Shown one piece after another: positions 1 through 52,209 of a stretch of DNA of 64,000 bases. The first letter of the stretch is position 1. Every line of letters starts with the position of its first letter. The position numbers and the translations under genes are program-made. This DNA is from Microthyrium microscopicum (lineage: Eukaryota), in contig MU004230.1 in NCBI GenBank assembly GCA_010405405.1, forward strand, positions 4,420,282-4,484,281. The letters are read 5' to 3'. Below the pieces are notes generated by a model that searched no databases, had not been told where the DNA came from, and saw nothing but the letters and a program-made list of their open reading frames with translations.

Positions 1-992
1 GAAATACGTACAGAATGGGTAGACAGCAGACCAAAGAAGAGATGACAGGATTGCTGAGGTTTGATGATAGGAAACAAGAAGGTGAGTGAACAGAGGATGA
101 TAGAAATCCGTTTTGCAACCTAGAGTGAATCCAAAACTTCTGAAATGTAATATGCAAGTCGATATGACAGAGGAGACAAAGTCAATTGGAAGGACAGGCG
201 AGTTTCAATGGGACAATTGGTGGAGAAAAGACGGCCTGATAACCAGCAGTTAGTCTCAGCCCAAGAGCTCCGATTCACGAGTAAACAAACCTGGTTAATT
301 GCCAGTGAGGTTTGAGATATAATTCGAGAATCTTAGAAGTGGAATTTTCTAGGCAAGACCTTGAAAGGGACCGGCCGAAATGTGAGTATGTGAGTGCAGT
401 CGCGCAGCCTACTGTCCAGACGCAAGCTTCACGATCGAGCGTGTAACAGTTGCAGTAAGCCCCAGTAGTCAGAGTCAACGACAATGCGGCTAATATCAAT
501 GTTGAGTGGACGAATAGCAGGATGATCGAAAGGAGAGCTTTTGGTAAGACGCAGTAAGGTTATAGCTCCGCGCGTATGAATCCAGTTGTAGAAGTCTTGA
601 ATCTGAAGATAGAGTATAAAGAGGAGGCCGGCGACGAGGGGTTTTCGTTAACAATCAGCGATGATGAGATGAGTGGAAGCGACGGTCTTCCCGTAGTAGT
701 TAGTGAGAGTGAGAGAGGTGCAAAAGGCGAAGTTGAGATGGGAACTTGGAAGGAGCTGCTGCTGCACGCTTGAGGGTCTGCCCACCTCAACATCCCTGCT
801 GCAGCGCAACAGCGCTAAACTCTTTTGAAAAATCCTAGAAAGGGTCACTGCTGTGGTCCATGTGGCTTCATGGCCAACAGTTGTTCTCTTCCTAAACACA
901 ACACTGTTCATCCTTCTGAACATACCACTCCCTCACGACTCTATAATCCAACCTTTTGATCACCATACGCCTCATCGCATCAAACCATCAAC

Positions 993-1406
993 ATGTCGGA
1001 CCAACTCAAGGTAAACAGCGCCCGTCTGTTTCTGCGCGCTTTTGCTCGAAGCTAACTTGTCCAAGGAATTCGCTGAGATTCCCCGAGAATTCCTCAAGGA
1101 GGGTACACAGTTCATGAACCGATGCCAAAAGCGTACGTTACCCTTTCAGCGCGCCTTGCGCTTCACCAGAAACACACTCGCGAATGCCCCTTCCAATTGC
1201 AGTTGGCGGTCGCGCTCGCGCAATTATTCAGCTATCCATAGCCATACTTTACATCATCGTATACATCTACTGACCATCCTCTAGCAAACAAGCGTGAATT
1301 CATCAAGCTTTGCCAAGCTGTCGGACTCGGATTCGTCGTTATGGGCGCTATCGGCTACTTCATCCGCATAATCCACATCCCCGTCAACCAGATTCTCGTG
1401 TCGTGA
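993..1406 (+). CDS. SSS1: Sec61 translocon gamma subunit (3 exons: 993-1010, 1066-1132, 1285-1406)
   Basis: Manual splicing gives MSDQLKEFAEIPREFLKEGTQFMNRCQKPNKREFIKLCQAVGLGFVVMGAIGYFIRIIHIPVNQILVS*, a typical Sec61-gamma. Introns GTAAAC..GCTAAC..AAG and GTACGT..CTGAC..TAG. Confidence 0.95.
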
Positions 1407-1980
1407 GAACAGCAACGAACTAGCTGCTCGGAGAAGAGCATGGAGCAGAAGGACAATGCACCTGCGCCAACATCCTCGTTGAATACTCGTCAGGTTCATT
1501 CATAGGGAGAGAAATAATTCTTGGATGGGGTTGGGAGTCTTATGATCAGCATATAGCGGATTGGGCTTGACCGTTTGTACGATATGGTTTTACGCGGACT
1601 AGAAAAGTCAATTCACATATTCTGGGCCACTTCTTTGATGCATACTTGCTTCCACCTTTCAGCTATTGTCAGATTGGTTTTCACTATGATCTTACATTCG
1701 CTGTTTACGTGAACAACGTTCAGAGACCAGTGGCTGATAGCCTAAAAATATACCTTACAACTCTATCGTCATCTGGCCTGCTGCAACAACTTCCTGTTCT
1801 TGATGGCCTGAATTAAAACCCGTCTTTCTCGAGCTTCTGATATAATATGAAGCATCTACAACTCAAGAATGAGCAATAACTGGCTGGGGAGGCAATAAGT
1901 TGTGAAGAAGACGCGTAAGGCACGTACTGTAGATCAAGTAACAAAAGCCGGACATTGTGCTTGAAACTTTTTCTCAATCT

Positions 1981-2168
1981 GGTGAGATGGGTACGTGCAA
2001 ATATTCTGCAAATTCAATACCATTACTAACATTGCCAAGCCGAGTGGTCTAAGGCGCTACGTTTAGGTTATTTATAACCCCCGTAGTCAGAAATGGCGTG
2101 GGTTCGAATCCCACTCTCGTAAGCATTCTCCTGACTCTCATCAAGTATTTCACTAACAAATTAGATCA
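1981..2168 (+). tRNA. tRNA-Leu(UAG) interrupted by two spliceosomal-type introns (1991-2039, 2119-2164) and one canonical tRNA intron (2068-2080)
   Basis: Joining 1981-1990, 2040-2067, 2081-2118 and 2165-2168 gives an 80-nt cloverleaf: acceptor GGTGAGA/TCTCATC plus discriminator A, D-stem GCC/GGC, anticodon stem CTACG/CGTAG with TAG at 2064-2066, long variable arm, T-arm GTGGG-TTCGAAT-CCCAC. Confidence 0.9.
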
Positions 2169-2182
2169 TTCTTCTGATAGAA

Positions 2183-2193
2183 TTTTCTTTTTT
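2183..2193 (+). terminator. Putative RNA polymerase III terminator (T4-C-T6)
   Basis: TTTTCTTTTTT about 15 nt after the reconstructed tRNA 3' end. No run of 4 or more T occurs inside 1981-2168. Confidence 0.65.
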
Positions 2194-2603: not shown

Positions 2604-5600
2604 CTATTCGAACCCGCTATTCCCCTTTCTCAAAATCCCAAATATCGAACGCCCCAGAGACTTCAACACTGTCTTCTTAACATGCTCCTTGCGCTTCTTC
2701 TCCGCCGCATCCAGCACCAACCGCCGCTCCGCCTCACGCGCTTGCGCATGCATATTGCTCTTCTTGCTGCCACCCAGCCGCATTCCCGACTTCTCGCCGC
2801 TTCCACTAGAAGTTGACGATGAATTCGATGTTGTGGATAAGTTTGTTGCGCGTCGTAGTAGTGATGGCACTTTGAAGATAGAACTCATTCCTTTCCCGCC
2901 TGCTTGGAAGGCCATGGGCTGTTGTGCGCTTTCTGAGTCGGCTGTGTTGGTGCGACTGAGACGGTTGACGACGGAGGAGGTTCTGCTGGTTTCGGAAGAG
3001 ATTGTGTCGCTGCGCGAAAGGAGGTTTTCGTGTATAAGGTTGAAAGGGTCATCATCTTCGTCGTTGAAGTCTAGGGTTGGCTGGGAGTCGGGAATGAAAG
3101 GCTCGTCGACAAGGAAGGAGAGGGATTCGCGAATTTCAGCGAGAGAGGTTGGGCGTTTAGTTGGTGCGTCCTGAGCGGCGGTGGTGCGGCGTGGATGGCG
3201 TGCTGGTGGGACATTCTCCTTGTCGTCGGATACGAAGTCGTCTGGGAGTTTGCGCTTCATTGAGCTGGGAGAAGGAGCATGCTCGGGCTGAATTTTTTGC
3301 TCATCAGGCTGGGTATCAGGGACCAAGACGACGGTGGGATCGTCGAGGAAGTTTTGGCTTTCAAAGTCATCGCGGTCCTCGAGGGCGTGGAAGAACGCTT
3401 GCTGTTTGGGATTTTGAGCGATTTTGCCAATCTTCTCATCTTCTAGCAGAGCTCGTCGCATGCGAGCGAACTCTTCTTGCTTGCGGCGACGTCGTTCTGC
3501 GCCATCGTCATCTGAATCATCAAGATCGTCGAAGCCAGCGGCGCCTCGCTTTTTGCGTAGGAGGCCGGTTGTGACGTCTTTGTACAGCTTATTGATTTGC
3601 TTTTCGTCGGCTTGACGTTCCTTCTCGCTAAGGTTTCGTTAGTCATGATCTTTGGGAGAGTGTTATGGAGGGACTTACGCATGGAAAGCAGCAACAGCGT
3701 TTTCGTTGACATCAACATGACCGTCATCCATCATCCTCTGCATCTCTTCGTCCATTTCTCCATTACTCTCATCATCACTGGCACCTCCAAGTCCAGCATA
3801 CTCATCTTCAGATTCTTCAGCCTGTTCTTCAAAGAGCTCCTTGGCTGCACTCTTCTTCTTGTCGAAAGCGGCTTTATTGGCAGCCTTCTTGGCTCCTCTG
3901 GATAAGACATTAAAGGCGTCCTTCGCTGAATCCGCTCCAAGAGCAGCTTCTGCTGGAGGCTGCATATCCTCGTCTTCAGAGTCCATAGCCATGTCTTTAC
4001 GACGAATGAGCCGACCTTTGGGCTTTCGTACGGGCGTCTCTTGAGTGGCGAGAACCAAGGTATCAACAGTAGATGGAGGTACTTGCTGTTTACCGGCAGG
4101 CTCACGTGGAGCCGCAAACCCAGCATCCTGGGTCAACTCGATGAATTGCGACATCTTGACAGGAGAAATCTGCGTATCCTCAAATTGGGAAGGAAATTGA
4201 CTTATTCCCAGACTGATACCAAGCGTTGGTTCTTGAGGAACACTCTCTGATAATGCAGCTAGCTGGCTGTTAGGCATTAGCTTGCTCTTATAGAAAGAGT
4301 CATCAAAGTCCGACTTGGAACCGGGGAAGTGGTCCAGAAGAGCCATGGAGTCTTGATCAGGGTCAAATTTAAGGTTGGATACTTGAGAATCTTCTTGAGA
4401 ATCCAGACCCAGAGTTCCAGCAAATGCTTGGCTAAGTCCTCCTGCAGCAGCACTGGAGGGTAAGAAACCAAAGGCTGCTCGCGCTTTGTCACCCGGAGAC
4501 ACCCCAGATAATGTTGTTGGAGGAGCCAAAGCTTCCTCATCCTCATCATCTTCAACAACTCTTCGCTTTAGAGAAGGGCGAGCTCGAGGCATGGCTGCAA
4601 CAGGCTCATCATCTGTCTCTGATTCAGGGACCGTCTCAGTTATAGCCTGTTGATTGATTCCAGTAGGTTCCGGTGTGCTTTCAATCAAAGGAGCATCCTT
4701 CACCGGCACTGCAGCAATTTCATCTACTGTTTTGGCGGCGGGAGGTTTGGGTTGGAAGATGCCCCATACTTCTTTCTCTTCAGAGTCCTCACCTGCGCTC
4801 TCGTCGGCCTCATTGTCGAAGAGTGGCATTGGGTGCTCTGCATCATCTTCGTCGGCTTCCACCTCATCCTCAGATCCAGAGAGCTCGGCTTCTGACGCCT
4901 CATCCTCATCCTCGCCATCCCAGTCCTCATCGTCGTCATCATCGTCTGGAAGATCACCGTCTTGTTTTCCCTCCTTCTTTGCTGCAGCCTTTTCTTTCTT
5001 CGCAATATCAGCGGCCTCAACTCTGGCTCTCTCGAGCAGTGTTTCGAATTCAAGCTGTTCTTGTTCTCGCTCCTCCATAGTTTGAATGACAACACCTCGA
5101 GCTCGGAGTTCAGCGATTCTCTCCTCTTTGTCTTTGATGGCTTGTTGGCGAGCCTTTTCTTTGAGTTGTTGCTGAAGTTCTGGAAGAGTGAGCCCCTTGC
5201 CCTTACCGCGTTTTTTGCTAGGAGATGTGAGGTTGGCCAAATGTCGTAGCTGCATCAAAGACACTGACTCCATGGTACGGTTGGCTGGCAAAGCGTCGAA
5301 GATTTTGGTAGCTTTTGCTTTGGGTTTAACAATCTCAAGTTCATCATCCGAATCATCTAATACAATCTCCTTTGAGGCGGGAGGAACGATACGGAATTGC
5401 TTCTTAGCACCAGATGGTTTGCTTGCCACTTTTGGCTCTGGGGCTGCGGTAGCTAATGATGGTGCGAGCTTGCTCTCTCGAGCCCGAGCGAATAGTTCCT
5501 TGATGTCCGGTAAATCGTCGTCGACATCAAACAAGTCATCATGGAGTGCTGGTTCTCCGACATCAGCTTCAGGCGCTACGGATAGTTTGACTAGAGACTT

Positions 5601-7210: not shown

Positions 7211-9373
7211 ATGTCGCCCAGCATGAAATACGTTCTGGTCTCTGGAGGTGTTATCAGCGGAGTAGGAAAGGGCATTATAGCCTCGTCTTCTGGCCTCCTA
7301 CTCAAAACGATGGGTATGAAGGTCTCTTCAATTAAGATCGACCCATATCTCAACGTCGACGCGGGCACGATGAACCCAAAAGAGCACGGAGAAGTCTTCG
7401 TTCTTGACGACGGCGGCGAAGTAGACCTTGATTTGGGAAACTACGAACGATATCTCAATATCACCCTTACCCGAGAAAACAATATCACTACCGGAAAAAT
7501 ATATCTTCATGTCATCGAGAAGGAACGAAGAGGTGATTACCTCGGCCGCACTGTCCAGGTCGTTCCAAATATCACCGATGCCATTATAGAATGGATACAA
7601 CGAGTGGCCAAAATTCCAGTCGACGATACAAATGAGGAGCCAGATGTTTGCATCATTGAGCTTGGAGGCACCGTGGGGGACATGGAGAGCATGCCATTTG
7701 TCGAAGCCTTGGTCCAGGTAAGCACCTTTCCAGTTTGAACGGATATTGCCAAGGAGTACGATCGCTACCATCAAATCCAAACTATCGAGTACGATGACTA
7801 CCATGTTTTCCGTAAATTATGGAGTGCGCCTTTTCCCATCGACTGCGTAAAATATCCAACACTTTATTAAGTACGATGGGAATTGACGCCGTCTTTGGTT
7901 AGGAAGTGTCATGGTAGACATGGCACTCGATGGCAGTATCATCGAATGGGCTCGCTCATGTTCGCAACCCATTTTCTAACAATTTCTACCTTTTAGTTGA
8001 AGCGAAAAGCTGGTCGAGATAACTTTTTCCAAATTCACGTCTCCTATATACCCACGATCCACGGCGAACAGAAGACGAAACCCACGCAAATGGCAATCAA
8101 ACAAGTGAGAAGTTACGGTCTCATACCGGACCTTATTGCTTGTCGATGTGAGCGAGATCTCGAAGCGCCGACAATCAACAAAATTGCCCAATTTTGTCAC
8201 GTTGAGAACGATCAGGTTCTAGTTGTGCGAGACATGCCGTCAATTTATCAAGTTCCACTACTCCTTGAAACTCAGGGGTTGGTTCCACTCCTCAAAGCCG
8301 GTCTAAGATTGGACGACATTTCCGTACCCGCTAGCCTCCTATCCCGTGGCAACGAGGTCTGGGACAAATGGAAGGGCCTCACCACTCAAAACCAGGATTA
8401 CCTGGCAGTCGTATCCATCGCGCTTGTTGGTAAATACACCGAATTCCACGACTCATATCTCAGTGTACTCAAAGCTCTGGAGCACTCTGCCATGCAGTGT
8501 CAACGAAAACTCGAGGTAAAGTGGGTTGACTCGGAGCATCTCGAGCCAAAGACCAAGGGAAGTGATTCAGCCAAGTTTCACAAGGCATGGCATGAGGTCT
8601 GTACTGCAGATGGCATTCTCGTCCCTGGTGGATTCGGTACTCGTGGCACAGAAGGCATGATCGCAGCTGCAAATTGGGCTCGAGAAAATGATGCTCCATA
8701 TCTCGGCATCTGTCTCGGAATGCAGATTGCTGTCATCGAATATGCCCGCAACGTCTGTGGTGTCCAAGGCGCCACAAGCGAAGAGTTCAGCAAAGAGACT
8801 ACCCCGAAAACCCAGTCAATTGTCGATATCAAGAACATGTCGCTAGATGGACCTGTGCCAGATGGGGTCAACGCCAAGGCTGATGCTGCTCAACTCAAAG
8901 AAGGCGCTAAGGGTGACAAGTCAAAAAACCTGATTGTGTTTATGCCAGAGATCGACAAGACCACCATGGGAGGAACCATGCGTCTCGGTAGACGGCCAAC
9001 TCATTTCCAGCCTCAGTACGAATGGTCGAAACTTCGAGCTCTGTATGGAAATCATAAAGACATCCATGAGCGTCATCGCCATCGCTACGAGGTCAATCCA
9101 GCCTGGGTTCCAACTTTGGAGGAAGCTGGTCTCGCATTCGTTGGCAAAGATGACGAGAACGTTCGTATGGAAATTGTCGAGATCAAGGACAAGAAGTGGT
9201 TCGTTGGGGTTCAATTTCACCCAGAGTACCTCAGTCGAGTCTTGACTCCCAGCCGACCATATCTTGGATTTGTCGCCGCCTGTGCCGGAATGTTGAAGGA
9301 GGTTACGGAGCAAGAGAAGAACTGGAATGCCGACCAGACTACGGTCAATGGAAAAGCTCATGGTGCTTTTTAG
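7211..9373 (+). CDS. URA7: CTP synthase (exons 7211-7717, 7997-9373)
   Basis: [53 protein letters not shown]. Intron GTAAGC..CTAAC..TAG. Translation could also start at the second Met. Confidence 0.97.
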
Positions 9374-9857: not shown

Positions 9858-11749
9858 ATGTCAAGCGAACAGACCCTACCTGAGAGACCGGCTGACGTAC
9901 CAAGTGCCGAGGCTGCTGAAGGTGGTGAAGGTGGTGAAGGTGGAGAGAAGCTCTCCAAAAAGGCACTTAAGAAGATGGAAAAGGAGAAGGAAAAGGCCGA
10001 AAAGAAGCGTTTACAGCAAGAAAAAGAAGCCGCTGCCAAAGCGCAAGCTGATGCGAACGATGTCTCCAAAGACAAATATGGCGAGTATGTACTCAAGAAA
10101 CTGGACCCGTCCAAACGATATTCTAACCACTGGATAGTACTCCTATAATAGGCACTGCAGATTACAAACCCTTGACACAGAAGCGCTACAAACTCCACGA
10201 ACTCGCAGAGATTGCCGATGGCACCAACGTCCTCATTCGAGCCCGTGTTCACAATGCGAGAAGTCAATCCGCCAAACTAGCTTTCCTTAACCTTCGCGAT
10301 CGCTTGGATACCATACAGGCTGTCATTGCTGCTAGCGAGACACTCAGTCGACAGATGGTCAAATTTGCCTCGACGTTGTCATCTGAGTCTATTGTCGACG
10401 TTGTTGGTACGGTCAGAGGCGTGACAGACCCTATCAAGAGCGCCTCAATCAGCAACGCAGAATTACACATTGAAGAACTATGGGTTATCAGCAGAGCTCC
10501 AAACCAGATGCCTATCCAAGTCGAGGATGCTGAGAGCCGAATTCCCAATGAAAACGCGGCTGAAGAGAAGACGGAGACTGGTCGTCCGACAGTGACTTTG
10601 CCAACTAGACTTGACAATCGTGTCATCGATCTGCGTTCGACTCTGAATCAGGCCATCTTCCAGATTCGTGATGGTGTACAGCAGCTCTTTGAGGAATATC
10701 TACGGAAACATGACTTTCTGAAGATTGATACTCCGAAGCTACTTGGTGCTCCATCTGAAGGTGGTGCTAATGTGTTTGAGGTCAAGTACTTTGACAAGAA
10801 GGCCTATGTAAGTTCCTCCCATACCGAACCAGTGGACATTGTAGACTAACCTTGGACGAAAGCTCGCTCAATCGCCCCAGCTCTACAAACAAATGATGAT
10901 TGCAGCCGATTACAAACGAGTCTTTGAAACCGCTCCAGGTAAGTGTACATTCAAAGCTTCGAGACAACTTCACTAACAAGCCCAAGTCTTCCGCGCAGAA
11001 AACAGCAACACCACCCGCCACTTGACAGAATATACTTCCCTCGATCTCGAAATGGAATTCGAGCACGACTACCACGACGTAATCCACTTCATCCGCGATC
11101 TGCTTCTCTACATTCTCCAAGGTCTCGAAACCCGCTATACTAAGCAAACGGAGCGCGTCCGCAAAGAATACAAAACCGAGGCCTTCCTCGTGCCCAAGAA
11201 TCCCGCCGACGTGCCCATCATCACCTTCCGCGAAGGAGTCGCTCTCCTCAAAGAAGCCGGCACAGAAATCAGTGAGCTTGAAGACATCAAGTATACCCTC
11301 CCTCTCTCCCCTCTTTATCCTTTCCACTAACAAAACATCGCAGTTCAACAGAAGAGAAACAACTCGGCAACCTAATCCGCACCAAATACAACACGGACTT
11401 CTACATCCTAACCGAATACCCCCTCGACGCCCGCGCATTCTACACCATGCCGCACAAGACCGATCCGCGCTTCAGCCATTCGTACGATTTCATGCTGCGT
11501 GGCCAGGAAGTCTTGAGCGGTGCGCAGCGGATTCACGATCAGGCGATGTTGAAGGAACGATGTAAGGTGTTGGGCATTGATGCGGATGGTCCGGGGTTGA
11601 AGGACTACGTGAATACGTTTGCGTATGGGTGTGCGCCGCATGCGGGTGGTGCGTTTGGGGCGGAGCGGATTGTGTTGAATTGGCTCGGCTTGGGAAATGT
11701 CAGATTGGCGACGCTGTTCCCTAGAGATCCGAGTCGATTGACGCCGTAG
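9858..11749 (+). CDS. DPS1: Cytoplasmic aspartyl-tRNA synthetase (exons 9858-10084, 10138-10807, 10863-10938, 10987-11290, 11344-11749)
   Basis: TRLDNRVIDLR, SEGGANVF, LAQSPQLYKQM, VFRAENSNT.RHLTE, SYDFMLRGQEVLSGAQRIHD, LFPRDPSRLTP. Four canonical introns keep the frame. Confidence 0.95.
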
Positions 11750-12045: not shown

Positions 12046-13796
12046 TTACGATGCTGGCACTACTCCTCGAACACCACCCTTTCCACCAACTTCTCTTGCA
12101 ACCATCGTGACTGCTAGATCGGGACCAATGTTGAGCTGCACTTCGATTTTGGCACCTTTCTTAACGCCTCGAATCGCTGCCTCAGCAATGGTAGCCTTGT
12201 GCTTCCACTTCTTCTCCTTTATCTCCTCCTCTTCCTCTTCCGAATCGTCGTCATCATCGCTATCGTCGTCATCGCCATTGGTCTCGGGCTTGGTTTTCTT
12301 CTCAACAGGCTTGCTGATCACTTCGCTAGTACCTTCGCAAAGCTTGACAATAACATCACCACCAGCGCCAGGTACGGGGAAGATCTTACTACGCCGTACG
12401 GGTACAGGTGTCTCAGCTTCGACGAGCGGCACAAATACACCATGAGACTTCTCGTCAGCGCTGATGCAGAGCAGTCCAAGCGCGGTACTTAGGTGTGCTG
12501 TGGCTGTGACGACTGGGTGGCAGCTCTCGCGCACATCCTCGACGTCAAAATCGCTAATCAGACTGGCTTGGATGGCCGCTCCACGAGCAGCAAGTTCGCT
12601 GGGGTTGAGAGCCTCGGTGCTGGTGGCAGGGGCGTGGACTGCGGCGGAGGAGAAGGTAGATTGCATGTTGCGAGCGAGGCGTGGTGTGTGGGACGAACCG
12701 CCGGACATTATAACATCGGAGATATCGAGTGGGTCGAGACCAGCTTTTGCGACGACGCTGAGCACAAGACGGGAGATAGCAGCGAAGATTTTGCCAGCGA
12801 GCAGCTCATAACGAGTGCGGTTGATGGTAGCGGTAAAGTCGATTCCAGAAGAGAGCGATTCGACACTGAAGTTGGCAGAGCCGCCGAGACTGAGGGCCTT
12901 CTTGACAGCTTCCGACTCGAGGGTGAGTTTGGCAAGAGAGCGGGCGTTGTTGCGTGGGTCTTCCGCAGATTTGTTCTTTTTGAGAAATTCTTTGGCAAAG
13001 TATTCTACGAGGACTTTGTCGAGTTGTGTACCACTGTATTCATAGTCGTGGGCCGTGGCAAGAATGGTGTAAATCCCTCCTCTGGAGGCTACGACTGCAA
13101 TGTCAGTGCGAGTGCCGCCAATGTCAGCGACAACAACAGTCTTGTCCGAAGGATCGGTTCCAGTGCGCGCATCGTAGGCGAGAACAGCAGCTACCGGCTC
13201 ACTGATGAGCTGCAAGACCTCGACTCCAGCATCCGCCGAGGCTTTCGATAGCGCCTCTTTTTGAGCATCGGAAAAGTTTGTGGGAACTGTTATAACAGCA
13301 GAGTTGATAGATTTGCCAAGGAAATCAGCAGCAGACGCTGCTAATACACGAATGTGTCTAGTAGCAATTTCAGAAACAGAAGTATTGTTCGATTCCTCGG
13401 CTTCAGTATCGCGGATTGAAAAGGCTATCGAGTTGCCAGATTGTATTGGGTGCGCAGACTGATGGCATGGTGATGGGTCTATCGACTTGAATTCCTGACC
13501 AAGGAAATCGCGAAAATATGCAACGGTGTTTTTGGGATTGCGCACCAATTGCGCTTTTGCCTGCGTACCCTGGAGCTCTTCGCCGTCGACGTACGCTAAT
13601 ATTGAGGGAATTTGACGATCTAGAATAGATTAGCCACGGCGTGGTACGGAATTAGCAAAGTCTTTTACATACCTCCCTCTTCGTTGGCGATAACCTCCGC
13701 CTTGCCTTCACCAGTAGTATGGGCTATGGAGCTATAAGAGTTGCCAAAGGCAATGCCTATGGCGACGCGCGAGCTAGGTTCTCCGTCGGCACTCAT
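12046..13796 (-). CDS. SSZ1: Ribosome-associated complex Hsp70 (intron 13620-13672)
   Basis: IGIAFGNSYSSIA, VIANEEGDRQIPS, AVITVPTNFS; short atypical Hsp70 lacking the lid and EEVD. Confidence 0.92.
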
Positions 13797-14818: not shown

Positions 14819-15926
14819 TTAAAGGTGATAAGGCGGTTCCGCACCCTCGACTGTTGCGTACACAGCAGTGATTGCATCAGCAAGATCGGATGGAAGCGGC
14901 CCAGCCTTGATAGCATCAAGGGTATCACGTAGCTGTGCGAGTTTGGACATTCCAATAATTACACCATCACCATATTGACCATCCAAAATACTATGGAACG
15001 CCGTCCATCGTATCGCTGCTTCATGGCCGCTGATTCCGTGCTTCTGGGCAGCATCTCGAACAATTTTCACTGAATCCTGGACAGGTTGTTGACCGTAAAG
15101 CATCTTGTAAAGGCTGCCGGGGGCATTCTGATTCTTCTTAGCGCGATCTGTATCAAGTGTCCTTGGCGAGCTTACACTGTCGCTCCAGCGAACTGAAGTG
15201 TGACTATGGCCTGAGAAAAGACCACCTGCCCCAGCACTGATGAAATAGTCAGATATAGGGCCTGTACACTCGAAGATTACCTACCTGTATGCATAGAATG
15301 CAATTTTGTTCTTACGCAAGACAGGAAAGAGTTCCTTCTCGCCTCTTCTCACAATGGCGTTGTAATGTCCTTGATACACGCTTGGTTTGGCATAACCTTT
15401 CTCCTCGCATAAGTCAACAAATTGCTGCACTTCTGCAGGAGCGTAATTAGAGAGTCCAAATCTTTTGCATTGTCCTTGCTCGATAGCTTGATTCATCGCC
15501 TTTGCGGACTCCTCAAATGGAGTCTGGCGATCAGGCACATGCAGATATAAGGTCTCTACACTGTTTGACTTCAGAGCATCCAGAGATTGTTTGATGCTTT
15601 GACCAATTTTTGTGTATTCATGCGATCCAGGCTGACCATCAAGAACTTTGGTATCGATGATGAACCGAGAGGCGGCACCAGCCTGACCAAGTCGTTTCTC
15701 AGAGGCACCATAATTGCCGGCCGTATCGATATTACTATATCCGCGATTGTAGAATGTGTCAAGCAGAGCTTTCACATCTTTCTCGTTGTCGAAGTGTGCA
15801 ATGCCGGGGTGTGTTGAGCTATCGCCGACCTACGATGATACTATAAGAAGCCGGAAGTTTCAATTGGTAGGTCATACGAACCATATGTGTCCCCAAAATG
15901 ATCTTTACGGGTGTATTGGGGGACAT
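14819..15926 (-). CDS. Aldo-keto reductase, aflatoxin B1 aldehyde reductase-like (exons 15926-15882, 15829-15285, 15236-14819)
   Basis: IDTAGNY, IDTK, LYLHVPD, GLSNY, YQGHYN, AAIRW, GVIIGMS motifs; two GT-AG introns. Confidence 0.88.
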
Positions 15927-19679: not shown

Positions 19680-22600
19680 ATGGCCACCGCCACCATTGAC
19701 ACAACCTACCTTTCCGCCGCCTACTCCTTCCCCGAGGCATCCTTTCAAACCCTTCGTACATCCCCTACTCCAGACCTTGTCGAGTCGTTACTCAATCGAC
19801 TCGTACAAGTCGCCCAAGATTTCGATAACACCAAAGCGGAGAAGCTTCGTGCAGATGTTGAGTTAGAATCCGCGGTGCGCAGCGGCGAGAGTCGCGTTCA
19901 CCACCTGAAGACAACTCATGAAAAGAATGTGGAAACCATTCAAGAGCTTCGTCGAAGCTTGAACGATTCTGGTATGTTCAATTTTCTGACTACTTCGAAG
20001 AATACTGACAATGTTAGAAAATGCGCGTACATCCCTCGAAAATGAGCTCCAGACTCTCAAATCATCCTCGAATACATCCTCCTCCGAAGTCGAACAATTA
20101 CAGTCTCGTATTTCTACACTAGAATCATCCAATAGAGATACCGTCTCTCTACTAGATAGCAAGTCTGCTGCTCATGATCGACTCGCGGAGGAGCTGTCAG
20201 CTCAACAACAAAAGATTGTCGCTCTTCGTCGCGAAGTCTCGTCGCTGGAAGAAAAGCTTCAAAAGGCAGAAAATGCTTCCATGAGCTCCAAATACCGAGA
20301 ACAGTCCTTACAAAATGAAGTGCAATCCTTGAAGAAGACGAATGATTGGAATGAGGATGAAATCAAACGCCGTACCACAGAACAATCAAAGTTCCGGAAA
20401 GACAAGGCGGCGCAGGTCGCAGAACTTCAACGCGCGAACGAGGATCAAGCTCAAACTGTCGAAACCCTCCGTCGAACCGAGACTACCTTGCGCAACCGAG
20501 TCCACGAGATTACACAGAAGCTAGAAGAATCATTTGCCAAGGTCCATGCATTGGAAGATGAAGCGACCAAAACTCAGGACTCTTTCCGTGAAGAACTTGA
20601 AAATGCTCATCGTCTAGCCGAGTTACAAAAACAAAGCGCAACGACTTCAAGAGCTCGTCTACAAGAAGTGCAAGAGGCATATGAACAGATCAAGGAAGAT
20701 GCAGCGACAGAAATCGGCCAACTTCAAGCTGAAATTGATTCGGAGCGAGCTGACCGGGACGCGGCCGACACCAAGCTTGCAGAAATGGAAGCACATGCCG
20801 AAGCGCTCGAGGCAGAACTCAACGAATCCCGTCGTCATGTTTCCCGACCTACAACTCCTCGACGTGGTATGAATGGCGCAAGTAGAGGAACTACTCCCAT
20901 GGGCACACCGTCAGGAGCATTTGCCTCGCCTGCGGCTTCTCGACTCAAGGGTAGCTTAAGCATGACTCAGCTATATACTGAACATGCACAAATGAAAGGA
21001 GAATTGGATCTTGAACGTCGGCGAAACGAAAAGCTAAGATCAACCATGGACGAAATGATTCGAGACTTGGAGAAACAACAACCAGGAATCGAGGAGCTTC
21101 GTATGGATCATGAGCGACTACAAACCGATCTCGAGGAGATGACAGGCCTACTGGATGACACAGCCAAGGAACGCGATCTTGCTCGTAAGGAAGCCAAACG
21201 ACTTGGTGGAGAAATATCCGGTTTAGCACAAAGCTCAGAAATTCTTCGTCAACAACTCCGGGATGCAAGTCTCCAAATCAAGGTGCTGTTGGCGGAGGGC
21301 CAGTATAGAGAACGTGGATTGGAATCCTTAACAATTGCCGATCGTTCACTTCTGGAGCAAGCCATGCGTGGAGAGATGGAGATCGAAGAGATAATCGGCA
21401 TGTCAGCGACTGGTCAACTCATCAGCGAACGTCTGGCCATCTATCGAAATGTTGAGGAGCTCCAAACCCAAAACCTCAAGCTCGGCAATCTCACTCGGAA
21501 ACTTAGCGAGCAGATGGAAGGCGCGGAAGCCAAGGCCAAGAAAGAGCAGCAAGATAAAAACGTCAAGGAGCTCGAAGAGCTGCGAGAACGTGCACAACAG
21601 CACGAGAATGAAGTCAAATCTCTCACTGTTCGGAGCGAAAGCTATATCCGAGAGCGAGATATGTTCCGACGAATGCTCGCACATCGCGGCCAACTTCCTG
21701 CTGATGCAGATTTGTCTGTCATGTTTGGCGAGTCTGTCAACGGTGGCGGCCTCGGCGCATCTTTCGGTGGCGCAAGCCAACAACCTGTAGTGGCTCCTCA
21801 ATTGGGTGATTCAACCTCCATGGCCAAGGACTTGGGGGATTATAACCGATTACTCAAAGAGATGCAGTCCCAGTATGACAACTACCGCCAAGAAGCATCC
21901 ACCGAATATGCTGCACTCAAAGAACAACTTGGTCGAACTGGCAAGGAGAAGAATGATCTTCAGAGCGAAATCGCCAAATCTTCTAGTCAACTCACTCTGG
22001 CACGAGAGCGATATGAGCTTCTGCAATCCAACATGGCCATGCTCAGATCCGAAAATGGAGAATTGCAAAAGCGCTCCACTTCTCTGGCTGAGGTTGCTGC
22101 CAAGCAGGATCTAAGAACACAACAGGTTGCAGAGGAGTTGATAGAAGCTCGATCTGCCACTGATGGTCTTCGCAACGAGAATGCCAATCTCAAGGCTGAG
22201 CGAGAACTCTGGAAGAAGATTGAAAACCGTATCGAGGAAGACAACCGTCAACTTTCGGAAGAGCGAAGTCGCCTCAACAAAATGGTCTCAGATCTTCAGA
22301 GCTTACAAAATGAGCGTGAACTGGCCGATTCGGAGACCCGCCGACGTCTTCAAAGCCGCATCGATACTTTGGAGTCGGAACTCCAATCTACTAAACGAAA
22401 ATTGGACGACGAAACTGAAGACGGCAAGAAAGCAGCAATGCGGCGCGAATACGATCAAGAACAGAGCCGCACTCGTATCGACGACTTGCTTTCTAGTCTG
22501 CGAAATACTCGTGAGGAGCTGGTTGCACTCAAAACCCAACGCGATAGTCTGCAGAATCGGGTGGATGAGATGAAGGTTGAACTTCGAGCAGCTGAAGAGA

Positions 22601-25600
22601 AGGCGCAGGCACTTCAACCTCGACCTACTTCAGGCCGAGCTACGAACGGTAGTACTGAAGATCAAGAAAACCAACTCACTGCTGAACAAGAACTTACCAT
22701 ACAAGTTTCGGATCTCAAACGTGATCTGGAGCTCAAGACTGGGGAGGTTCAACAGGCAAGTGAGCATGTCGAGCAATTCAAAAACATCGCCCAAGCTGCA
22801 GAAGAAGAGCTTGAGAGCCTCACAGAAACCCATGATCAATTCAAAGAAGAAATGGATCGCATGGTTACTGAAAAGGACAACAAGATCCAGGATCTTGAAA
22901 AACGTGTTGAGGAGATCTCATCGGAGCTTTCAACGACGAGCAACGAATTGTCACAACTTCGCGAAGCACAAGAACAAACCGCGACAAATTTCAGTGAACA
23001 GAAATCAATTCTGGAGTCTGAGATTGTTCGCCTTCGAGACGACAGCGAGCGATTCTCCGAGACCTCTAAGCTTCATCAACAAGATCTTAGAGCGCAAGCC
23101 GATATTGCTCAACGTGCCCAGCAAAGCTACGAAGACGAGCTGGTCAAGCATGCAGAGGCTGCGAAACTTCTACAATCCGTGCGATCCGAGTTCAATGAGC
23201 TCAAGACTCAAGTCGCCGGTTTCAAGGCTGATGCGGAAGCTTCAAAGGTTGCTCTCAACCAAAACGAGGAGAGCTGGTCTGAGACACGGGCTCGCTATGA
23301 GCAAGAACTCACTGAACTTCGCACTCGTCGTGAGGATGTCAACTCTCAAAACGCCCGTCTTCACACCCAGCTGGAGGCTGTCAGTGCCCAGATTGCTGCT
23401 CTCAAGCAAGCGAAACCTATGCCTGGATCTCCTGCGGACCGACAGAGCACTCCGGCCTTCGACAACAACAATCGCGATGAGATCATTACCTGGCTCAAGA
23501 ACGAGAAGGAGATTGTCGAAGTTCAACTCGAATTGTCATCTCAAGAGTGCAAGCGCTATAAACAAAAGTATGAGCTTACCGAAAGTCAACTTGATGAAGC
23601 TCGCGAAAAACTTAACCAGGAACGCCAATCGCATACGGACCGAGAACAGACTGCCATGAGCCATACCAAGCTTATGGAGTCTATCAACCAACTCAACCTC
23701 TTCCGGGAGAGTAACGCTTCGCTTCGCGTTGAAGCTCGTCAAGCTCAAGCTCAGCTTGCCGAGAAGATCACGGAAGTCGAGACACTAAGTACTCAACTTG
23801 AGCCTCTTCGGGCTCGCGTTAGTGAACTCGAGAACGAAATAGAGAATAAAGATGGGGAGATCAAGCTCCTGCAAGAGGACCGCGACCGTTCCCAAAAGCG
23901 AATCCAGGACATTCTTCAAAAGTACGACCGCATCGATCCTCAAGAGCTCGAAGCACTCAAGACTCGAATTGGAGAACTTGAGGCTGAGCGCGATACCATC
24001 GTTAGTGAGAAGGAAGCTCTCCAGGCTATCGCTGATGGCGTGGATGCGAAGATTCAAGAGAACACCGAGACGCTCAATGCACAATTCCAAGAGCGTAGAA
24101 ATAAGCTTATAGAGCAATCCAAGAACAAGGCCCGAGAACAAGGAGGCATCATTGCCGACTTGCGAACTCAGATTGAGGAGCTTCAGAAAGCAAAGTCAGA
24201 GCTCACTGAAGAAGTTGCTTCTGCCAAACAGCAATTTCAGACCGCGCAAGCTGAGCGTGATCAAGCCTTCGCTGCTAAGGGTTCAGAAGAAGGTCAGATC
24301 AACGAAGGCAATGATGCGTCTAATGTCGATGTCGCCTCCTATGAAGCACGAATTGCAGCTGCGGAGTCCAAGGTTGAGGAAGAGCAACAACGATGTGCTG
24401 CTCTTCAAGCTGAGAGCCAAGACGTTCAAGGTCGTATCCAGGCTTTCGAGGGTCAAATTGTAAGTTATCTCACCACAAATTGAAGCTCAAAATAATATGC
24501 TAACTCATTATAGTCTGAATTGCAGCAACAGCTGGAATCGACCACTGCCGAGATCACTCGACTGCAACAAGTCGATGTTCCCATACAGAATGGCCCATCA
24601 TCCGAGGAACTTGACGCTCTTCGTGCCCAATTGGCCACCGCTCAGCAGGAGCTTGAAACTGCTCGTGCTGGCGCTGCTGTGGCTTCGAATGGTCAAGCCC
24701 CACCGCCCAATAGTGGAGACGGACAGCCTGCGCTTAGCGAAGAAGAGCTTGAGCAGCGGGTAGCTGAGCGTAAGGCTGAATTAGAAGAACACTACAAATC
24801 TCTTGAAAGCCAGGCTGAAGAAAAACTCAAGATGCGGACAGAAAAGATGAAGACTGCCTTGAACACCAAACTGCAAGAGCGCAAAGCCGAAAATGAAAAG
24901 GCGATCGAGGACATTAAAACCAGTCATGCAGCAGAGCTGGAAGCTTTGAAATCCCAATCAGGTGCTGCGGCACCTATTGCTGATTCTAAACCTACTGAAG
25001 CCGAGAGCTCCAAGGTCAGCCAGCTGTCCAGCGGTTCATCACTCTCAGATCTGGCTGCTCTGACGCCCGAGGATGTTCGTACATTCGTTAATACCAACGA
25101 TACCGTTAAAGGCATTGTCAAGCGAACTGTCACTGCGCAAGTTGGAAAGGCCGAGGAGAAGGTCAAGGTCGAGTATGAGCAAAAGATGCAAGAACTTCAA
25201 GCCGGCTTCGAAATTCAGAAGAAAGAAGCTATCGACAACGCCAAGAATCTTGAAAGCAAGAGAAGCAGTGTGAAGCTCAGCATGGCTGATAAGAAGGCAA
25301 GTGGTGCTCTCGCAAAGCTGGGAGTCGTTGAGACTGCTGCCAAAGAAACCCCACAACGTCCAGTTGTCGAAGTTTGGGAAATTGCCAAAGTCGCTCAGCC
25401 AGCGCCTCCAGCTACAGCGTCTGGCTCTACTACCAACGTTCAACTCCAGCCGGGTCTCTCGGCCATTCGACCTGTGGCATCGGTCACCCAGACACCCGCT
25501 CAAGCACCCACTCCAGCTCCCGTGCAGGCGCCAACTATAGCACCTAATCCTTTTGGTGCTCCAGCTCAGGCGCCGGTCGCAGGAGTGAATCCATTTGGCG

Positions 25601-29264: not shown

Positions 29265-32200
29265 ATGGACGCCCGAAACAAAGCTTTCCAAAAACTAAAA
29301 CCGCCATGCGTTGCTTTGAGCCAGGCTGCTCTTGCTTCCATGGGTAGCAATGGAGACTCTGCTACTGTCGTTCCCGGGCTGTCAAATCTCTTGAAAGTCC
29401 TCAAACATCCTTCAGTTTTGGAAGCACTAGACGAGAAGCTAGCCGATTATGTCTTCTTCCCATTGTCTAGTGTGCTCCGACAACTGGAAAAGGTCTCTTT
29501 CAAGGCACAAGAACTTACCTTCGAATGCATATCTCTGCTCCTAGATACTGCATGGAAGAGAGATATTGCACCAGAACTAGGCATACAGCTCATGATTTTG
29601 CTCACCTTTTTGCTCGATGCAAAGAAGGAAGGCGCGCCAACCAGACTGGACTTGGAAGAGCTTTACGTCACAGCACTTAAGTGCCTCAGTAAGATATACC
29701 AGTCTTTGGGAAGCAGTTCGCGCGGCAAGAATGCTCTGACATCTGCACCTCACGTTCCACAAATCGGCAAGACCTTGACAGTCATGCTGGAGAACGTCAC
29801 GGATTCTAGCTTACCCAGTGTTCAGCTTGTAGCTCTGGAGGCTATTGATTCATTCTGCAAGGCATGGCCAGATCATGTGGCTTTGTCTTCCAGTTTTTTC
29901 CCGGGCTTTATATCGTCCCTGGCGCGGCTACTGAGTCCAAAGCCTAGCGACAAGACCTTTTACAAACCTTTGGTAGCAGGCCTTGAATTTCTGTCGAAGC
30001 TTCTAGTAAGCGTACTGGGAGATGACAAGACCAAATCTCTGCCAGAACGTACGCAAGGAGAAGGATCGTCTAAAGCACTGGATCAAGTGTGGCTTCGCGC
30101 CACAGTAGGACAAGTCAAAATCGCACTCTCAAATGTCATGAAGTTGCGAACTCGCAATCATGTTCAGGTCAGGCGTGCTCTGGCTCATTTGTGTTTGACT
30201 TGCCTCAAAAATTGCTGGATCTCTTTGGAGCCAGCTCGAGACATGCTATTAGAGAGTGCGCTTGTGGTTGCAGCTAACGATGAACAAATCGCAACAGACC
30301 TGGAGCATTTCATGGTCATCAACGAGTCAATTGCAGAGATACTTCGTTCCATCCTCTACAACAGTGTCGTATCACTCCCAAGACTCATGCTCTCTGCAGA
30401 TGATACCCTGCGCCAACGAACACTCAATCAAATCTCTTTGAACTTTCGCCTCTTGAGCGATGGTGGAATGGATCTTTCTATGGTGGAAAATGTGTTGGCC
30501 GCGAGTGTCAGAGACAGTATTGTCAACGTTTTCTCTTCCCAGAAAACATCGACTCTGATCTCTGAGCAAAACCAGCCGTCTTCCATGGAAATTGCGACAC
30601 TCAGCGAAAGCAAGGAAACATCCATGCCAGACGTTGTCGCCACCAGTGGAACTCAAAAGCAGATTGTCCTGGAAATGTCTAGAATGATGACCCAACTGGC
30701 CACAAACGACCAATCTTTTCAATTGACCAGGCAATTAGTGGCTTCCTTACGAAGTCACGACGAAAAAACCCGGCTTGCGTCCCTTTGGGCTTCACTCCAG
30801 CTACTCCGAGCAGCAAGTGAATCTTCTTTGTCTGATATGCTGAATATAGACGGCATTGACGATGGACTTCAAGATTTGCTCGAAGAAACCTACGACTTTG
30901 CTCTGCAAATGCTCAATATCTCGGATTATGAGACGAAGGACTGGCGCATCCGAGCTTTGTCCCTTGAAGTAGTGACACTACAAGCCCATTTTCATGGAGA
31001 GGGGTTCCGCTCTGAGTTTATTGATTGCCTTTATCCTGTTGTGCAAACCATGGGGTCATCAATTCCTGAGCTTCGTCAGCATGCTGTTGTTGCTCTCAAT
31101 CTTTTAGCAGGTGACTGCGGATATCATAGCAGTGGAGAAATGATCATTGACAATGTGGACTACCTGGTCAATGCAGTTGCATTGCGGCTCAATACCTTTG
31201 ACCTCTCACCACAAGCACCCCAGGTTTTAGTCATGATGATCAGACTAGCTGGTTCACCCTTGCTGCCGTTCCTGGATGATATCGTCGAAAGTATTTTTGC
31301 TGCACTAGAGTCCTTTCATGGGTATCCGAAGTTGGTTGGCTTTCTTTTCGAGGTTCTGAACACGATTGCCCAAGAAGGTGTCAAGTCACCGGGACTACAG
31401 ATTGAAGAGGATATGAACTTATTAAAGCAAGCCATGATATTGCAGAGGCCCATCTCGGTTGCAAATCTATGCCTCCTTTTGAGCGAGCAACATAGCAGAC
31501 TAGAAGAGCAAGAACTAGTATTTGATTCTCAAGATGAGAATATTAAGGAGGCTCTCGAAGCTGGAGAATATGTCGGCTTCCACAACGCTAACAAATCCAA
31601 ACCTTCTGAAAACAGCCCTGAAAATGACACTCTCGAAAAGTCTAGCGACAGCAAAGAGCTCAAGGAAGGAGGCTCGTTGCCGAAGGACCAAGCCAAAACA
31701 TACGAATTGCTACTGAGCATCGCACGGCTTACCCAGCACTACCTGACTACCTCGTCTTTAGAACTACGTATCAAACTCCTGACGTTACTCAAAACGATAT
31801 TCCCAACCCTAGGCCGATTAGAGGATTCTTTCCTACCGCTAATAAACGTTCTATGGCCAGTCTTATTGCCTCGTCTGCACGATCTGGAAACGTTTGTTGT
31901 GGCTGGTGCACTTGACGCCATTACTTTGCTCTGTGTCCACGCCGGAAGTTTCATGAAGAGCAGAATTGAAGATGCTTGGCTTGATATCCGAGCCCTCCAC
32001 GCACGGTGCTGGCCTACTCACCCAAGGACGTACCCGAAACTCGCCCTAGATCAGAGCCAGGAAAGCCCCACATTTGGCTTCAAGGTAGAAGGGTTTACAC
32101 AGGTTCCTGGCGCTGGCATAAGCGCTTCATCCCTACGACCGAGCTCGCACTCACCTGCCACAGGCATTCGAAATAGTTTGGTCGATCTACTCATCGCTAT

Positions 32201-36776: not shown

Positions 36777-37985
36777 TCACTTCCCCACAACAGTAACAAA
36801 CGTTGCATCAATCTGCACCACCTGCGGCAACGCCAACCTGACCTTATTCCTATACAACACCGGCTGTCTCGTCTGCAGTGGATTTCCCTCAAAGTACACC
36901 GTCTTCAGCTCCTTCTTATCCTTCAATTGACTCTCCACCTCTTCAAAGCTTGCTAACTGGCAGCCACTCGCCCACAATTCCTCTAGGTTGACTAGAGAGT
37001 CTAAGCCGCTAAGGTGCGCGATGGCGTTGGAGGAGATGTCGATTACGCGGAGGTTGGTGTTGGATTCTAGGCCGGTGATGGAGGTGAGGAGGTTGTTGGA
37101 GATGTGTAGTTCTTCGAGGCTGGTGAGGGCTGAGAGGCCGGAAATGGTGGTTATGCGGTTTGCTTGGATTGAGAGGATTTTGAGATTTGATAGAGTAGAG
37201 AGACCCTGAGAGGTGGTTTGTTAGTTTTGACTTGGATAGTCTAGGGATGAGCATCGGGACTTACGGTTATTTCTGTGATTTTGTTCTTGCCAAGCCATAG
37301 CTCTTCGAGGCCAGTCAAAGTCTCGAGATTTTCGACAGTCTGTATAGCGATTAGAAGGAGAATGTGTGCCACAGATTGTGATATCTTTTACCCGTATCCT
37401 GTTCCCACCCAGCTCCAAATTCCTAAGCTTCGACAGACCCTCCAGTCCCTGAATATGTGATATCCTATTCTGAACGAAATAAATATCCGTAAGCTCAGCC
37501 AAATGATCCACATTCTTCAAATGCTTGATCTTATTGAAGCTTAAATCCAAACTCTTCAACTTCCTCATCCCCTCCAATCCCTGTATATCCTTGATCAGAT
37601 TATCATAGAAATCAACCTCCTCCAACGTCTCCCTTAAACTCTCCGGTAGCTCAATCCTAGCGACCGCATTCTGCCGCAAACACAGCCGCAACACCTTTTT
37701 GAACCGGTCCAGTCCCAGCTTCGACACCGACGAGATGCGGCAGTGTGTGAGATCAATGTCCTCCGCATCATCTTCGTAGTCGGCAAGTAGATCCTCATCG
37801 GCCTCGATTTTGTCGCCTTCTATGGACGCTCCTTGTTGTACTACTGCGTGTCGTTGAACGGGATGTGAGTGCTCGTCTTCGCCTTCGGAGCTGACGGCGC
37901 TGTCGTCATCGTTGGTGCCGTTGATGTCGCTTATACGTAGCTTTCCGTCCCAACCGTTGCGGTTGGAGGTTGGAGAGGTGGGCAT
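36777..37985 (-). CDS. SDS22: Protein phosphatase 1 regulatory LRR subunit (introns 37340-37391, 37206-37264)
   Basis: GWDGKLR, LCLRQN, LDLSFNKI, LELGGNRI, ELWLGKNKI, YFEGNPLQ..YRNKVRLALPQVVQIDAT. Confidence 0.94.
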
Positions 37986-44398: not shown

Positions 44399-45651
44399 TC
44401 AAGCAACACCACCCTTCAGCCCATTCTCCGCCGCACTTTTTGGCTCTTCAGGCGTGTCTGTAGTCTGCCTAGCCGAACCCGACTCGAACGGCGCCGCCAT
44501 CAACGGTGATTGCATAAGAACATCCGCTTCACTTACAGGTTCTCCAAAGCCCACATACCCTCTTGCCAGCACCTCATCCTCAATGCGGCCCAGCCTCGCC
44601 ACCTCTCGACGAACATATGCCGTCACCAGCGCAATCTTCAAAGGATCCACATTCGCATCTGCATTGAACAATTGCCGCCAAACGGCAGCGGCGAGGACAT
44701 CGTCACCCTTGATTAAACCTTCATCATACGCAACGACTGTGCCGCGCCATATTTGTGAATAAGCTTCTAGACTTTTCCGGCGATCAGATGCATCGATTTT
44801 GTGAACAAAGTCCATGGTCCGCTCGGCTTCCCAGAAGAAGTGGTTGGTGAGGAGATCAGACCAGTGATCGCACATTTTCTTGGGGAGTTGGCGGATGCGA
44901 ACTTTAAGCATCCACATGTGTAGCATGCAGACTGTAGCCCATGTATTGAATGTTTTGGGAAGCCCAAGGGCTGTGGCATAAGTTAGCTAGGTAGATACTG
45001 TCGAGACTTGAATTGAACATACCATCAAACCACCATCCTGATCCGAGACCATCATGCATGCCTTGTTCGTCACGCTTCACTCGTTTCTTCGTCTTGCCGT
45101 CTAGCTCATCCACATACTCCTCCATCTGGAACGTGACCTTTGCTCGCTCACAGTCTTGAAACAGTCTTTCTAATACTCCCCAGCTCCACTGCGGCGTTGT
45201 CCATTTGTAATTGTGTATATCATCAGGAAGAGGAGCCAACACTTGGACCTCACCATGTTCATCTCTGACACCCACCCGCTGGCCGGTGGCGAGCATTTCA
45301 TATATTTGATCTAGAGTTGGTGCTGGCTCTTCAACATGGTTTGTAGGCTCTGTAGGATCGGGGATATCTTTGACTCCTTGGACAACAGGCTTCGTAGCAT
45401 AAAGTCGGACCGGGTCTGCGGCGGTTATGGGAGAAACGTTTCGTTGCGAGTTGCTGCGAGCATTCAATTGCCATATCGAGGGTCCGCTTCGAGTTGCGAT
45501 TGTTCGTCTTGACAAATTCGAGACAGTGCTGCTCTTGATTAACAGTTAGCAGCTACTCCAGAAGTAAGAACGCGCTACTTACGACTCTGGCAAAGGCGCT
45601 ATCACTTCTCAGTACTCTGGCGCATGCTCGACATGTATGATTTGAAGCCAT
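44399..45651 (-). CDS. CBP3: Ubiquinol-cytochrome c reductase assembly chaperone (exons 45651-45583, 45533-45023, 44970-44399)
   Basis: LGLPKTFNTWATVCMLHMWML, WRG...AYDEGLIKGDDVLAAAVWRQLF; basic mitochondrial-type N-terminus. Confidence 0.9.
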
Positions 45652-52119: not shown

Positions 52120-52209
52120 GTACGTTTATTCTCTCCGGATTTACCGCACCAAAAGACGATTGCGCACCTGATACCTGTGATGACCAACCGCTAATGCCAC
52201 TTTTCACAG
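52120..52209 (+). other. Probable 5'-UTR intron of RPS24
   Basis: GTACGT...GCTAAT...TTTTCACAG ending 32 nt before the ATG. Confidence 0.7.

Follow-up and report, generated by a model that had tools for sequence, protein, structure and literature searches.

The 64-kilobase (kb) stretch of Microthyrium microscopicum DNA analysed here, called the window throughout, holds at 1981-2168 on the forward strand what appears to be a transfer RNA (tRNA) gene for leucine, tRNA-Leu(UAG), divided by two introns of the spliceosomal type in addition to a canonical tRNA intron. We read it as a working nuclear fungal gene whose transcript would be spliced three times, and put the probability of this reading at about 0.7. 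The first intron is well supported by three loci: the window gene itself and two others, L001 and L002, on metagenome contigs. The second spliceosomal intron is probably real. The splicing, its order and the polymerase involved are what we infer from these sequences.

On inspection, the body of tRNA-Leu(UAG) spans 2040-2118, and the two halves of its acceptor stem lie apart from it, 49 nucleotides (nt) upstream and 46 nt downstream. The parts of the gene and its flanking T-runs are as follows.

1968-1972 (+): run of five T (T5), 9-13 nt before exon 1
1981-1990 (+): exon 1, GGTGAGATGG, tRNA positions 1-10, made of the 5' acceptor strand GGTGAGA, U8, G9 and G10
1991-2039 (+): intron 1, spliceosomal type, 49 nt, between tRNA positions 10 and 11; donor GTACGT at 1991, branch site TACTAAC at 2024-2030 with the branch A 10 nt from the intron end, which reads AAG
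2038-2047 (+): A-box-like sequence that includes the terminal AG of intron 1
2040-2118 (+): exon 2, the tRNA body, 79 nt, tRNA positions 11-69
2064-2066 (+): anticodon TAG, in exon 2
2068-2080 (+): canonical tRNA intron, 13 nt, after position 37, as called by ARAGORN
2101-2111 (+): B box GGTTCGAATCC, in exon 2 and intact
2119-2164 (+): intron 2, spliceosomal type, 46 nt, between tRNA positions 69 and 70; donor GTAAGC at 2119, branch site CACTAAC at 2151-2157 with the branch A 8 nt from the intron end, which reads TAG
2136-2143 (+): TCTCATCA inside intron 2, a copy of the full 3' acceptor strand and discriminator
2165-2168 (+): exon 3, ATCA, tRNA positions 70-73, that is ATC and the discriminator A73
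2183-2193 (+): T4-C-T6, a run resembling a polymerase III terminator, 15-25 nt past exon 3

Only the 13-nt intron at 2068-2080 has the features of a canonical, SEN-dependent tRNA intron, namely the 37/38 site and pairing with the anticodon region: in the minimum-free-energy fold, its TAACC pairs with G36/G37 plus TTA of that region.

In its genomic form the gene escapes the standard finders. ARAGORN reports no tRNA in the genomic DNA of the whole window, and no Rfam family reaches its gathering score. At permissive thresholds the Rfam tRNA model matches 2038-2114 as model positions 9-63, with 27.7 bits against a gathering score of 29; the alignment takes in all arms except the acceptor stem, and the model finds no further tRNA-like match in the window. 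A preliminary description of this DNA had proposed to compare a finder's results on spliced and genomic sequence. We ran ARAGORN on five forms of the gene, with the pieces joined by their coordinates. Three give tRNA-Leu(tag) (both inserts out, insert 1 alone out, all three introns out); the genomic form and the form with insert 2 alone removed give nothing. With both inserts out, the called tRNA has 82 bases, and its acceptor stem reads GGTGAGA/TCTCATC, with six Watson-Crick pairs and G2-U71, and is followed by A73. The features of a eukaryotic cytoplasmic leucine cloverleaf (7-bp acceptor stem, long variable arm, leucine anticodon and A73) are found solely once the inserts are out.

Both inserts have the marks of U2-type (GT-AG) introns: an extended donor, a CTRAC branch site near the AG, and a suitable length. 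For comparison, candidate introns were collected on both strands of the window by the pattern GT..CTRAY..AG at 38-129 nt, alternative ends of one donor being counted separately. There are 174 of them, 79 of which are flanked on either side by 25 or more open codons in compatible phase; their status as candidate messenger RNA (mRNA) introns rests on frame continuity only. The convincing ones are mostly 46-59 nt long and have the branch A 9-15 nt from the end, a population into which the tRNA inserts fit, with lengths of 49 and 46 nt and branch A distances of 10 and 8 nt. Candidates by frame continuity include the following.

10085-10137, 10808-10862, 10939-10986, 19972-20017 and 24460-24513 (+): candidate mRNA introns
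3628-3678, 13620-13672, 15237-15284, 37206-37264, 44971-45022 and 45534-45582 (-): candidate mRNA introns

The donor of intron 1, GTACGT, recurs at the candidate mRNA introns 51402-51501 (-) and 52120-52209 (+), and that of intron 2, GTAAGC, at 51046-51104 (-) and 52718-52776 (+). A strict pattern (GTA[AC]G[TC], then ACTAAC, 5-11 nt and AG, with a total of 40-60 nt) has four matches in the 128 kb of both strands. Two of them are the tRNA inserts, intron 2 as well as intron 1, and the other two, 10939-10986 (+) and 3628-3678 (-), join long open frames. In 20 dinucleotide shuffles the strict pattern occurs 0.05 times on average and once at most; a looser intron pattern gives 22 observed matches against 9.8 in shuffles (maximum 16). 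Since a pair of motif-complete segments brackets the tRNA body exactly where their removal gives a stem of seven base pairs (7 bp), chance is excluded.

The preliminary description holds up in every part that DNA sequence can test, and its interpretation is supported to that extent. The coordinates and motifs that it named are all present in the sequence, including the GTACGT donor in the SSS1 homologue, the Sec61-gamma gene. Removal exactly at GT/AG does give a Leu(UAG) cloverleaf with a 7-bp acceptor stem and A73, judging by ARAGORN on the joined forms, and the genomic form is indeed missed, with no call from ARAGORN and an Rfam match below the gathering score. Its statement that the inserts resemble the mRNA introns of the window in size and signals is borne out by the candidate list and the strict pattern.

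A scan of metagenomes for similar tRNA bodies used a pattern made up of CTRAC, a gap of 2-20 nt, AG and the leucine D-arm only. It returned two stretches on two contigs, one with a Leu(CAG) and the other with a Leu(AAG) body, and both have an intron at position 10/11.

L002, 453-462: exon 1, GGACAGATGG
L002, 463-515: intron, 53 nt, with GTAAGT, CACTAAC and the end CAG
L002, 580-587: 3' strand TCTGTTC and A73 of the Leu(CAG) gene, contiguous with the body
L001, 463-472: exon 1, GGCGAGATGG
L001, 473-515: intron, 43 nt, with GTGCGT, TGCTGAC and the end CAG

With the L002 intron removed, ARAGORN calls a tRNA-Leu(cag) of 83 bases, whose 7-bp stem is GGACAGA/TCTGTTC, followed by A73; on the genomic form it makes no call. 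Runs of five and seven T follow 7 and 22 nt after A73, and the flanks show no obvious gene. L001 carries a Leu(AAG) body whose contig stops in the T stem, so that acceptor pairing is not checkable there. As in the window gene, the Rfam tRNA model aligns only positions 9-63 in both. Exon 1 of L001 and of L002 ends in AGATGG, immediately followed by the donor. Donor, exon-1 sequence and pairing lie outside the scan pattern and hence are independent confirmation; the branch motif is not independent evidence in these two loci, because it was part of the pattern. As a negative control, the pattern TGGGT, 30-60 nt, AGCCGAGYGGTCTAAGGCG had no match in prokaryotic genome contigs and none in viral contigs, as expected.

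Exon 1 of the window gene is identical to that of L001 in nine of ten bases and to that of L002 in eight of ten, and the tRNA bodies of the three loci agree at 52-53 of 63-64 positions. The acceptor stems of the window gene and L002 covary: in pairs 3-70 (T-A against A-T) and 4-69 (G-C against C-G) both partners differ and still pair. In the window gene, position 70 belongs to exon 3. Both genes have G2-U71 and the 3' ending TCA. The intron interiors are identical at 19-25 of 41-44 positions, and shuffles reach their alignment scores in 23, 194 and 102 of 500 trials for the three pairs. We therefore do not take intron similarity as proof of common descent; only window against L002 is marginal (23 of 500, branch motif included). 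The 3' thirds of window intron 1 (2013-2039) and of the L002 intron (488-515) both contain TTCAAT, ACTAACATT and CC.AG, a likeness which hints that these introns are homologous and were not separately gained. Introns kept by selection typically combine a conserved position and conserved signals with a drifting interior, as seen here for the 10/11 intron. Most likely, this intron is no isolated case and has been inherited within a group of fungal tRNA-Leu genes whose anticodons are UAG, CAG and AAG.

Intron 1 falls within the internal promoter. The box A consensus is TRGCNNAGTGG, and we compared it with the loci by eye. The intron splits this box; AGCCGAGYGG, composed of the terminal AG of the intron and the start of exon 2, is kept in all three loci. 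On the other side, TGG and the donor form a partial second look-alike of the A box, at the normal distance from the tRNA 5' end. In L002, TGG-GTAAGT agrees with the 5' part of box A at all but one position of the consensus.

Window, 1988-1998 and 2038-2047: A-box-like sequences
L002, 460-470 and 513-523: A-box-like sequences
L001, 470-480 and 513-523: A-box-like sequences

The presence of such sequences on both sides of intron 1 could explain why an intron is tolerated at position 10/11. Transcription by polymerase III would require a start site between the T5 run at 1968-1972 and 1981. Runs of T such as those behind exon 3 are polymerase III terminators; a run of six or more T occurs in 0.7% of 40-nt windows of this sequence, and one sits behind exon 3. 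The absence of TTTT across 1981-2168 was rejected as a sign of polymerase III, 35% of composition-matched windows of 188 nt being likewise free of it.

Intron 2 draws support from its fit to the strict pattern, from the T4CT6 run behind exon 3 and from the effect of its splicing, which would turn the end of the acceptor stem from G.A, G.U, U.G into G-C, G.U, U-A and match the TCA ending of L002. Within this intron, the internal TCTCATCA arises in 616 of 200,000 shuffles of the interior and, in the predicted fold of the unspliced precursor, pairs with exon 1. It may be a relic of the origin of intron 2; it may provide a pairing that keeps the precursor together; or it may be the true 3' end of the tRNA behind a 21-nt insert, which we rank low because such an insert has neither an AG nor an endonuclease motif. 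The idea that intron 2 arose when a segment containing AGGT was tandemly duplicated was rejected, since the spliced junction TCTC/ATCA lacks AGGT. Direct repeats occur near intron 2: CATTCTCCTGA/CATTCTTCTGA at 2124-2134 and 2167-2177, and ATCAAGTA twice, at 1933-1940 and 2140-2147. As evidence of origin they were given no weight, since, by a rough estimate, chance alone would yield about 0.5-1 such pair in 361 nt; their placement at intron 2 and the trailer is suggestive of local duplication. The single public run that contains the locus is probably a DNA run, with 0.49 of sampled words and no joints on 1700-2500. Its contig covers 2146-2500 and ends exactly at 2146, inside intron 2, with nothing on the tRNA body; this end could come from a graph branch at repeated tRNA sequence or from a filter for conserved sequence.

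The proposed maturation would run as follows. The transcript would start a few bases before 1981 and end in the T-run at 2183-2193, and the spliceosome would remove introns 1 and 2 in the nucleus. The acceptor stem would form solely upon this removal, and RNase P, RNase Z and the CCA-adding enzyme would then act: as the 7-bp stem is absent until the introns are out, they could recognise the molecule only afterwards. The tRNA splicing endonuclease and ligase would then excise the 13-nt intron.

Several observations weigh against this picture. Removal of insert 1 alone still gives Leu(tag) in ARAGORN, with a weaker stem that contains G1.A72 and two G.U pairs. Intron 2 is present in the window gene alone, the 3' end of L002 being contiguous and the L001 contig ending earlier, and TCTCATCA offers a rival 3' end, which would leave a 21-nt insert without a terminal AG. 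About 57 nt separate the first tRNA base from the complete A-box-like sequence downstream; going by yeast tRNA genes, a standard internal promoter would start transcription inside intron 1. Uncapped first exons of 10-18 nt are unusual substrates for the spliceosome. Finally, the three loci come from three sequence sources, which may represent fewer than three species. The position of the A box bears on the polymerase. With the introns taken as spliceosomal, the tRNA might come from a polymerase II transcript, either a spliced non-coding host RNA or read-through from the Sec61-gamma gene, out of which RNase P and RNase Z would free it after splicing, as small nucleolar RNAs are freed from host transcripts. 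Recruitment of the spliceosome is normally coupled to polymerase II; in a standard tRNA promoter, the complete A-box-like sequence would be expected closer to exon 1; and the SecE/Sec61-gamma gene lies on the same strand, its end near 1409, about 570 nt upstream. We regard this origin as a serious alternative, yet an unlikely one, given the T4CT6 close behind exon 3 and the T5 and T7 close behind A73 in L002, the intact B box and A-box-like sequence, and the T5 run at 1968-1972 just before exon 1. Fission-yeast U6 is a polymerase III transcript whose intron has been shown to be spliced. We lean somewhat towards polymerase III over polymerase II, because the B box is intact and T-runs lie past the last exon in both complete genes, and because fungal U6 genes with spliceosomal introns are on record.

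The other alternatives concern the inserts themselves. Other lineages have endonuclease-type introns at non-canonical positions, and the two inserts could in principle be of this kind, cut by the tRNA splicing endonuclease, with GT/AG and branch motifs incidental. A simple test for a 3-4-3 bulge-helix-bulge motif at four offsets, under which the 13-nt intron of eukaryotic type does not count as a strict motif either, found zero canonical arrangements for window introns 1 and 2, two alternative 21-nt inserts, L002 and L001. With no such motif in the predicted folds, and with a complete fungal donor, CTRAC and AG in all four inserts, the endonuclease-type reading was rejected as scarcely credible. 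A case can also be made that intron 1 alone is real and that the true 3' acceptor strand is TCTCATCA at 2136-2143, the 21 nt before it being tolerated or otherwise removed and CACTAAC..TAG/ATCA a coincidence. The copy comprises the full 3' strand and A73, is rare by chance and pairs with exon 1 in the predicted fold, and TCTC stands on both sides of a 17-nt core, like a short target duplication. Set against this, the 21-nt insert has no terminal AG, no bulge-helix-bulge and no known route of removal; GTAAGC directly after TCTC, with CACTAAC 8 nt before TAG/ATCA, fits the strict pattern that shuffles produce 0.05 times per window; and the T-run would then be 40 nt from the 3' end, not 15. We judge it quite improbable. 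The failure of the finders on the genomic form, scored as not tRNA, is what one would expect of a dead or dying gene copy broken by inserts, with intact paralogues doing the work. Decay, on the other hand, would not spare splice signals alone: the intron interiors have a near-random similarity, whereas the three loci keep exon 1, donor, branch site, AG and, wherever it can be judged, an exact acceptor pairing in which changes compensate each other, and the terminator-like runs are kept too. A dead copy is accordingly a very improbable account, and a working gene with three introns remains the reading that we prefer.

Comparison with known systems sets the gene apart in several ways. Introns of the mRNA type are described in fungal U6 genes, with rarer cases in U1, U2, U5 and ribosomal RNA (rRNA) genes, in a passage of PMC5855946 that does not mention tRNA and calls the determinants of intron insertion into non-coding RNAs unclear. 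Like those U6 genes, so far as that passage describes them, the present one is a short non-coding RNA gene (transcribed by polymerase III in the case of U6) with a canonical donor, branch site and AG. Unlike them, its host is a tRNA, outside the spliceosome, so that the usual explanation, reverse splicing into RNAs close to the catalytic centre, does not obviously hold; both the A-box region and the acceptor stem are divided by the intron, and the gene would need the tRNA endonuclease as well. Spliceosomal introns in the ribosomal DNA of ascomycetes were reportedly described by Bhattacharya et al. in 2000. These too are of spliceosomal type and lie in a structural RNA gene of fungi, one that is not a polymerase II gene; there the host is rRNA, a polymerase I transcript, whereas here it is a tRNA.

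A 2025 article (PMC12530127) regards spliceosomal, tRNA and XBP1 introns as three types without relation to one another, and canonical eukaryotic tRNA introns as lying after position 37 and being removed by the SEN/TSEN endonuclease and a ligase; disrupted tRNA genes with non-canonical introns are treated in PMC3978253. The 13-nt intron at 2068-2080 is like the canonical ones in its site and its pairing with the anticodon region. The two larger inserts differ from them, being placed at 10/11 and 69/70, with GT..CTAAC..AG and no endonuclease motif. Archaea, red algae and nucleomorphs have multiple or non-canonical bulge-helix-bulge introns and split or permuted tRNA genes. The window gene resembles theirs in being cut outside the anticodon loop, in escaping the finders and in an acceptor stem that would be assembled after processing; it differs in that their introns are defined by the bulge-helix-bulge and cut by endonuclease, a motif not found here.

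The paper on tRNAscan-SE 2.0 (PMC8450103) contains no word starting with 'spliceosom'. Our literature search, which covered few subscription journals, turned up no tRNA gene described as carrying a spliceosomal intron, and the preliminary description knew of none either; the one phrase match of the search was 'non-spliceosomal tRNA introns'. While spliceosomal introns are known in structural RNA genes, this is, as far as we found, the first case in a tRNA.

The tRNA locus lies between two convergent genes, in a window with a G+C content of 48%. Neighbouring and other features are listed here.

990-1409 (+): SecE/Sec61-gamma (SSS1-like) gene, last exon ending near 1409
stop near 2604 (-): MRC1-like gene
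8090-9373: CTP synthase open reading frame, by Atlas look-up

The Sec61-gamma gene has three apparent exons, the first very short (MSDQLK); its second intron, of about 150 nt, is the one that starts with GTACGT. The codon CTA is in use in the window, as the preliminary description had noted, and accounts for 79 of the 701 leucine codons in its 11 open reading frames of at least 300 codons. At 29403-29496 (-) a long hairpin gives a weak match to mir-101, an animal family (24.7 bits against a gathering score of 60, E 0.33), and is probably just an inverted repeat.

Together with the two metagenome loci, the gene suggests that in some fungi the making of a tRNA depends on the machinery that splices mRNA. 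Passages in PMC12530127 and PMC5855946 set nuclear tRNA introns, which a protein endonuclease cuts, apart as a separate class, and assign spliceosomal introns to polymerase II transcripts, with a few small nuclear RNA and rRNA genes besides. An acceptor stem that exists solely after spliceosomal splicing would, if our reading is true, link both splicing systems in one molecule. Fungal tRNA gene sets would be incomplete, because ARAGORN and the Rfam model miss all three loci. The gene would further provide a natural substrate for the spliceosome on short uncapped transcripts and a test case for a polymerase III promoter that tolerates an intron inside box A, and it would bear on intron gain in RNAs that are never near the spliceosome's active site. 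We see even odds for a broader scenario: a fungal lineage in which an old spliceosomal intron sits at 10/11 of several tRNA-Leu genes, with more introns gained in some copies, so that part of the leucine tRNA supply for CUN codons needs the spliceosome on polymerase III transcripts, the A-box-like rebuilding making the position tolerable. Beside the endonuclease-type, group I and group II introns, such introns would be a further class in tRNA genes, invisible to current tRNA annotation.

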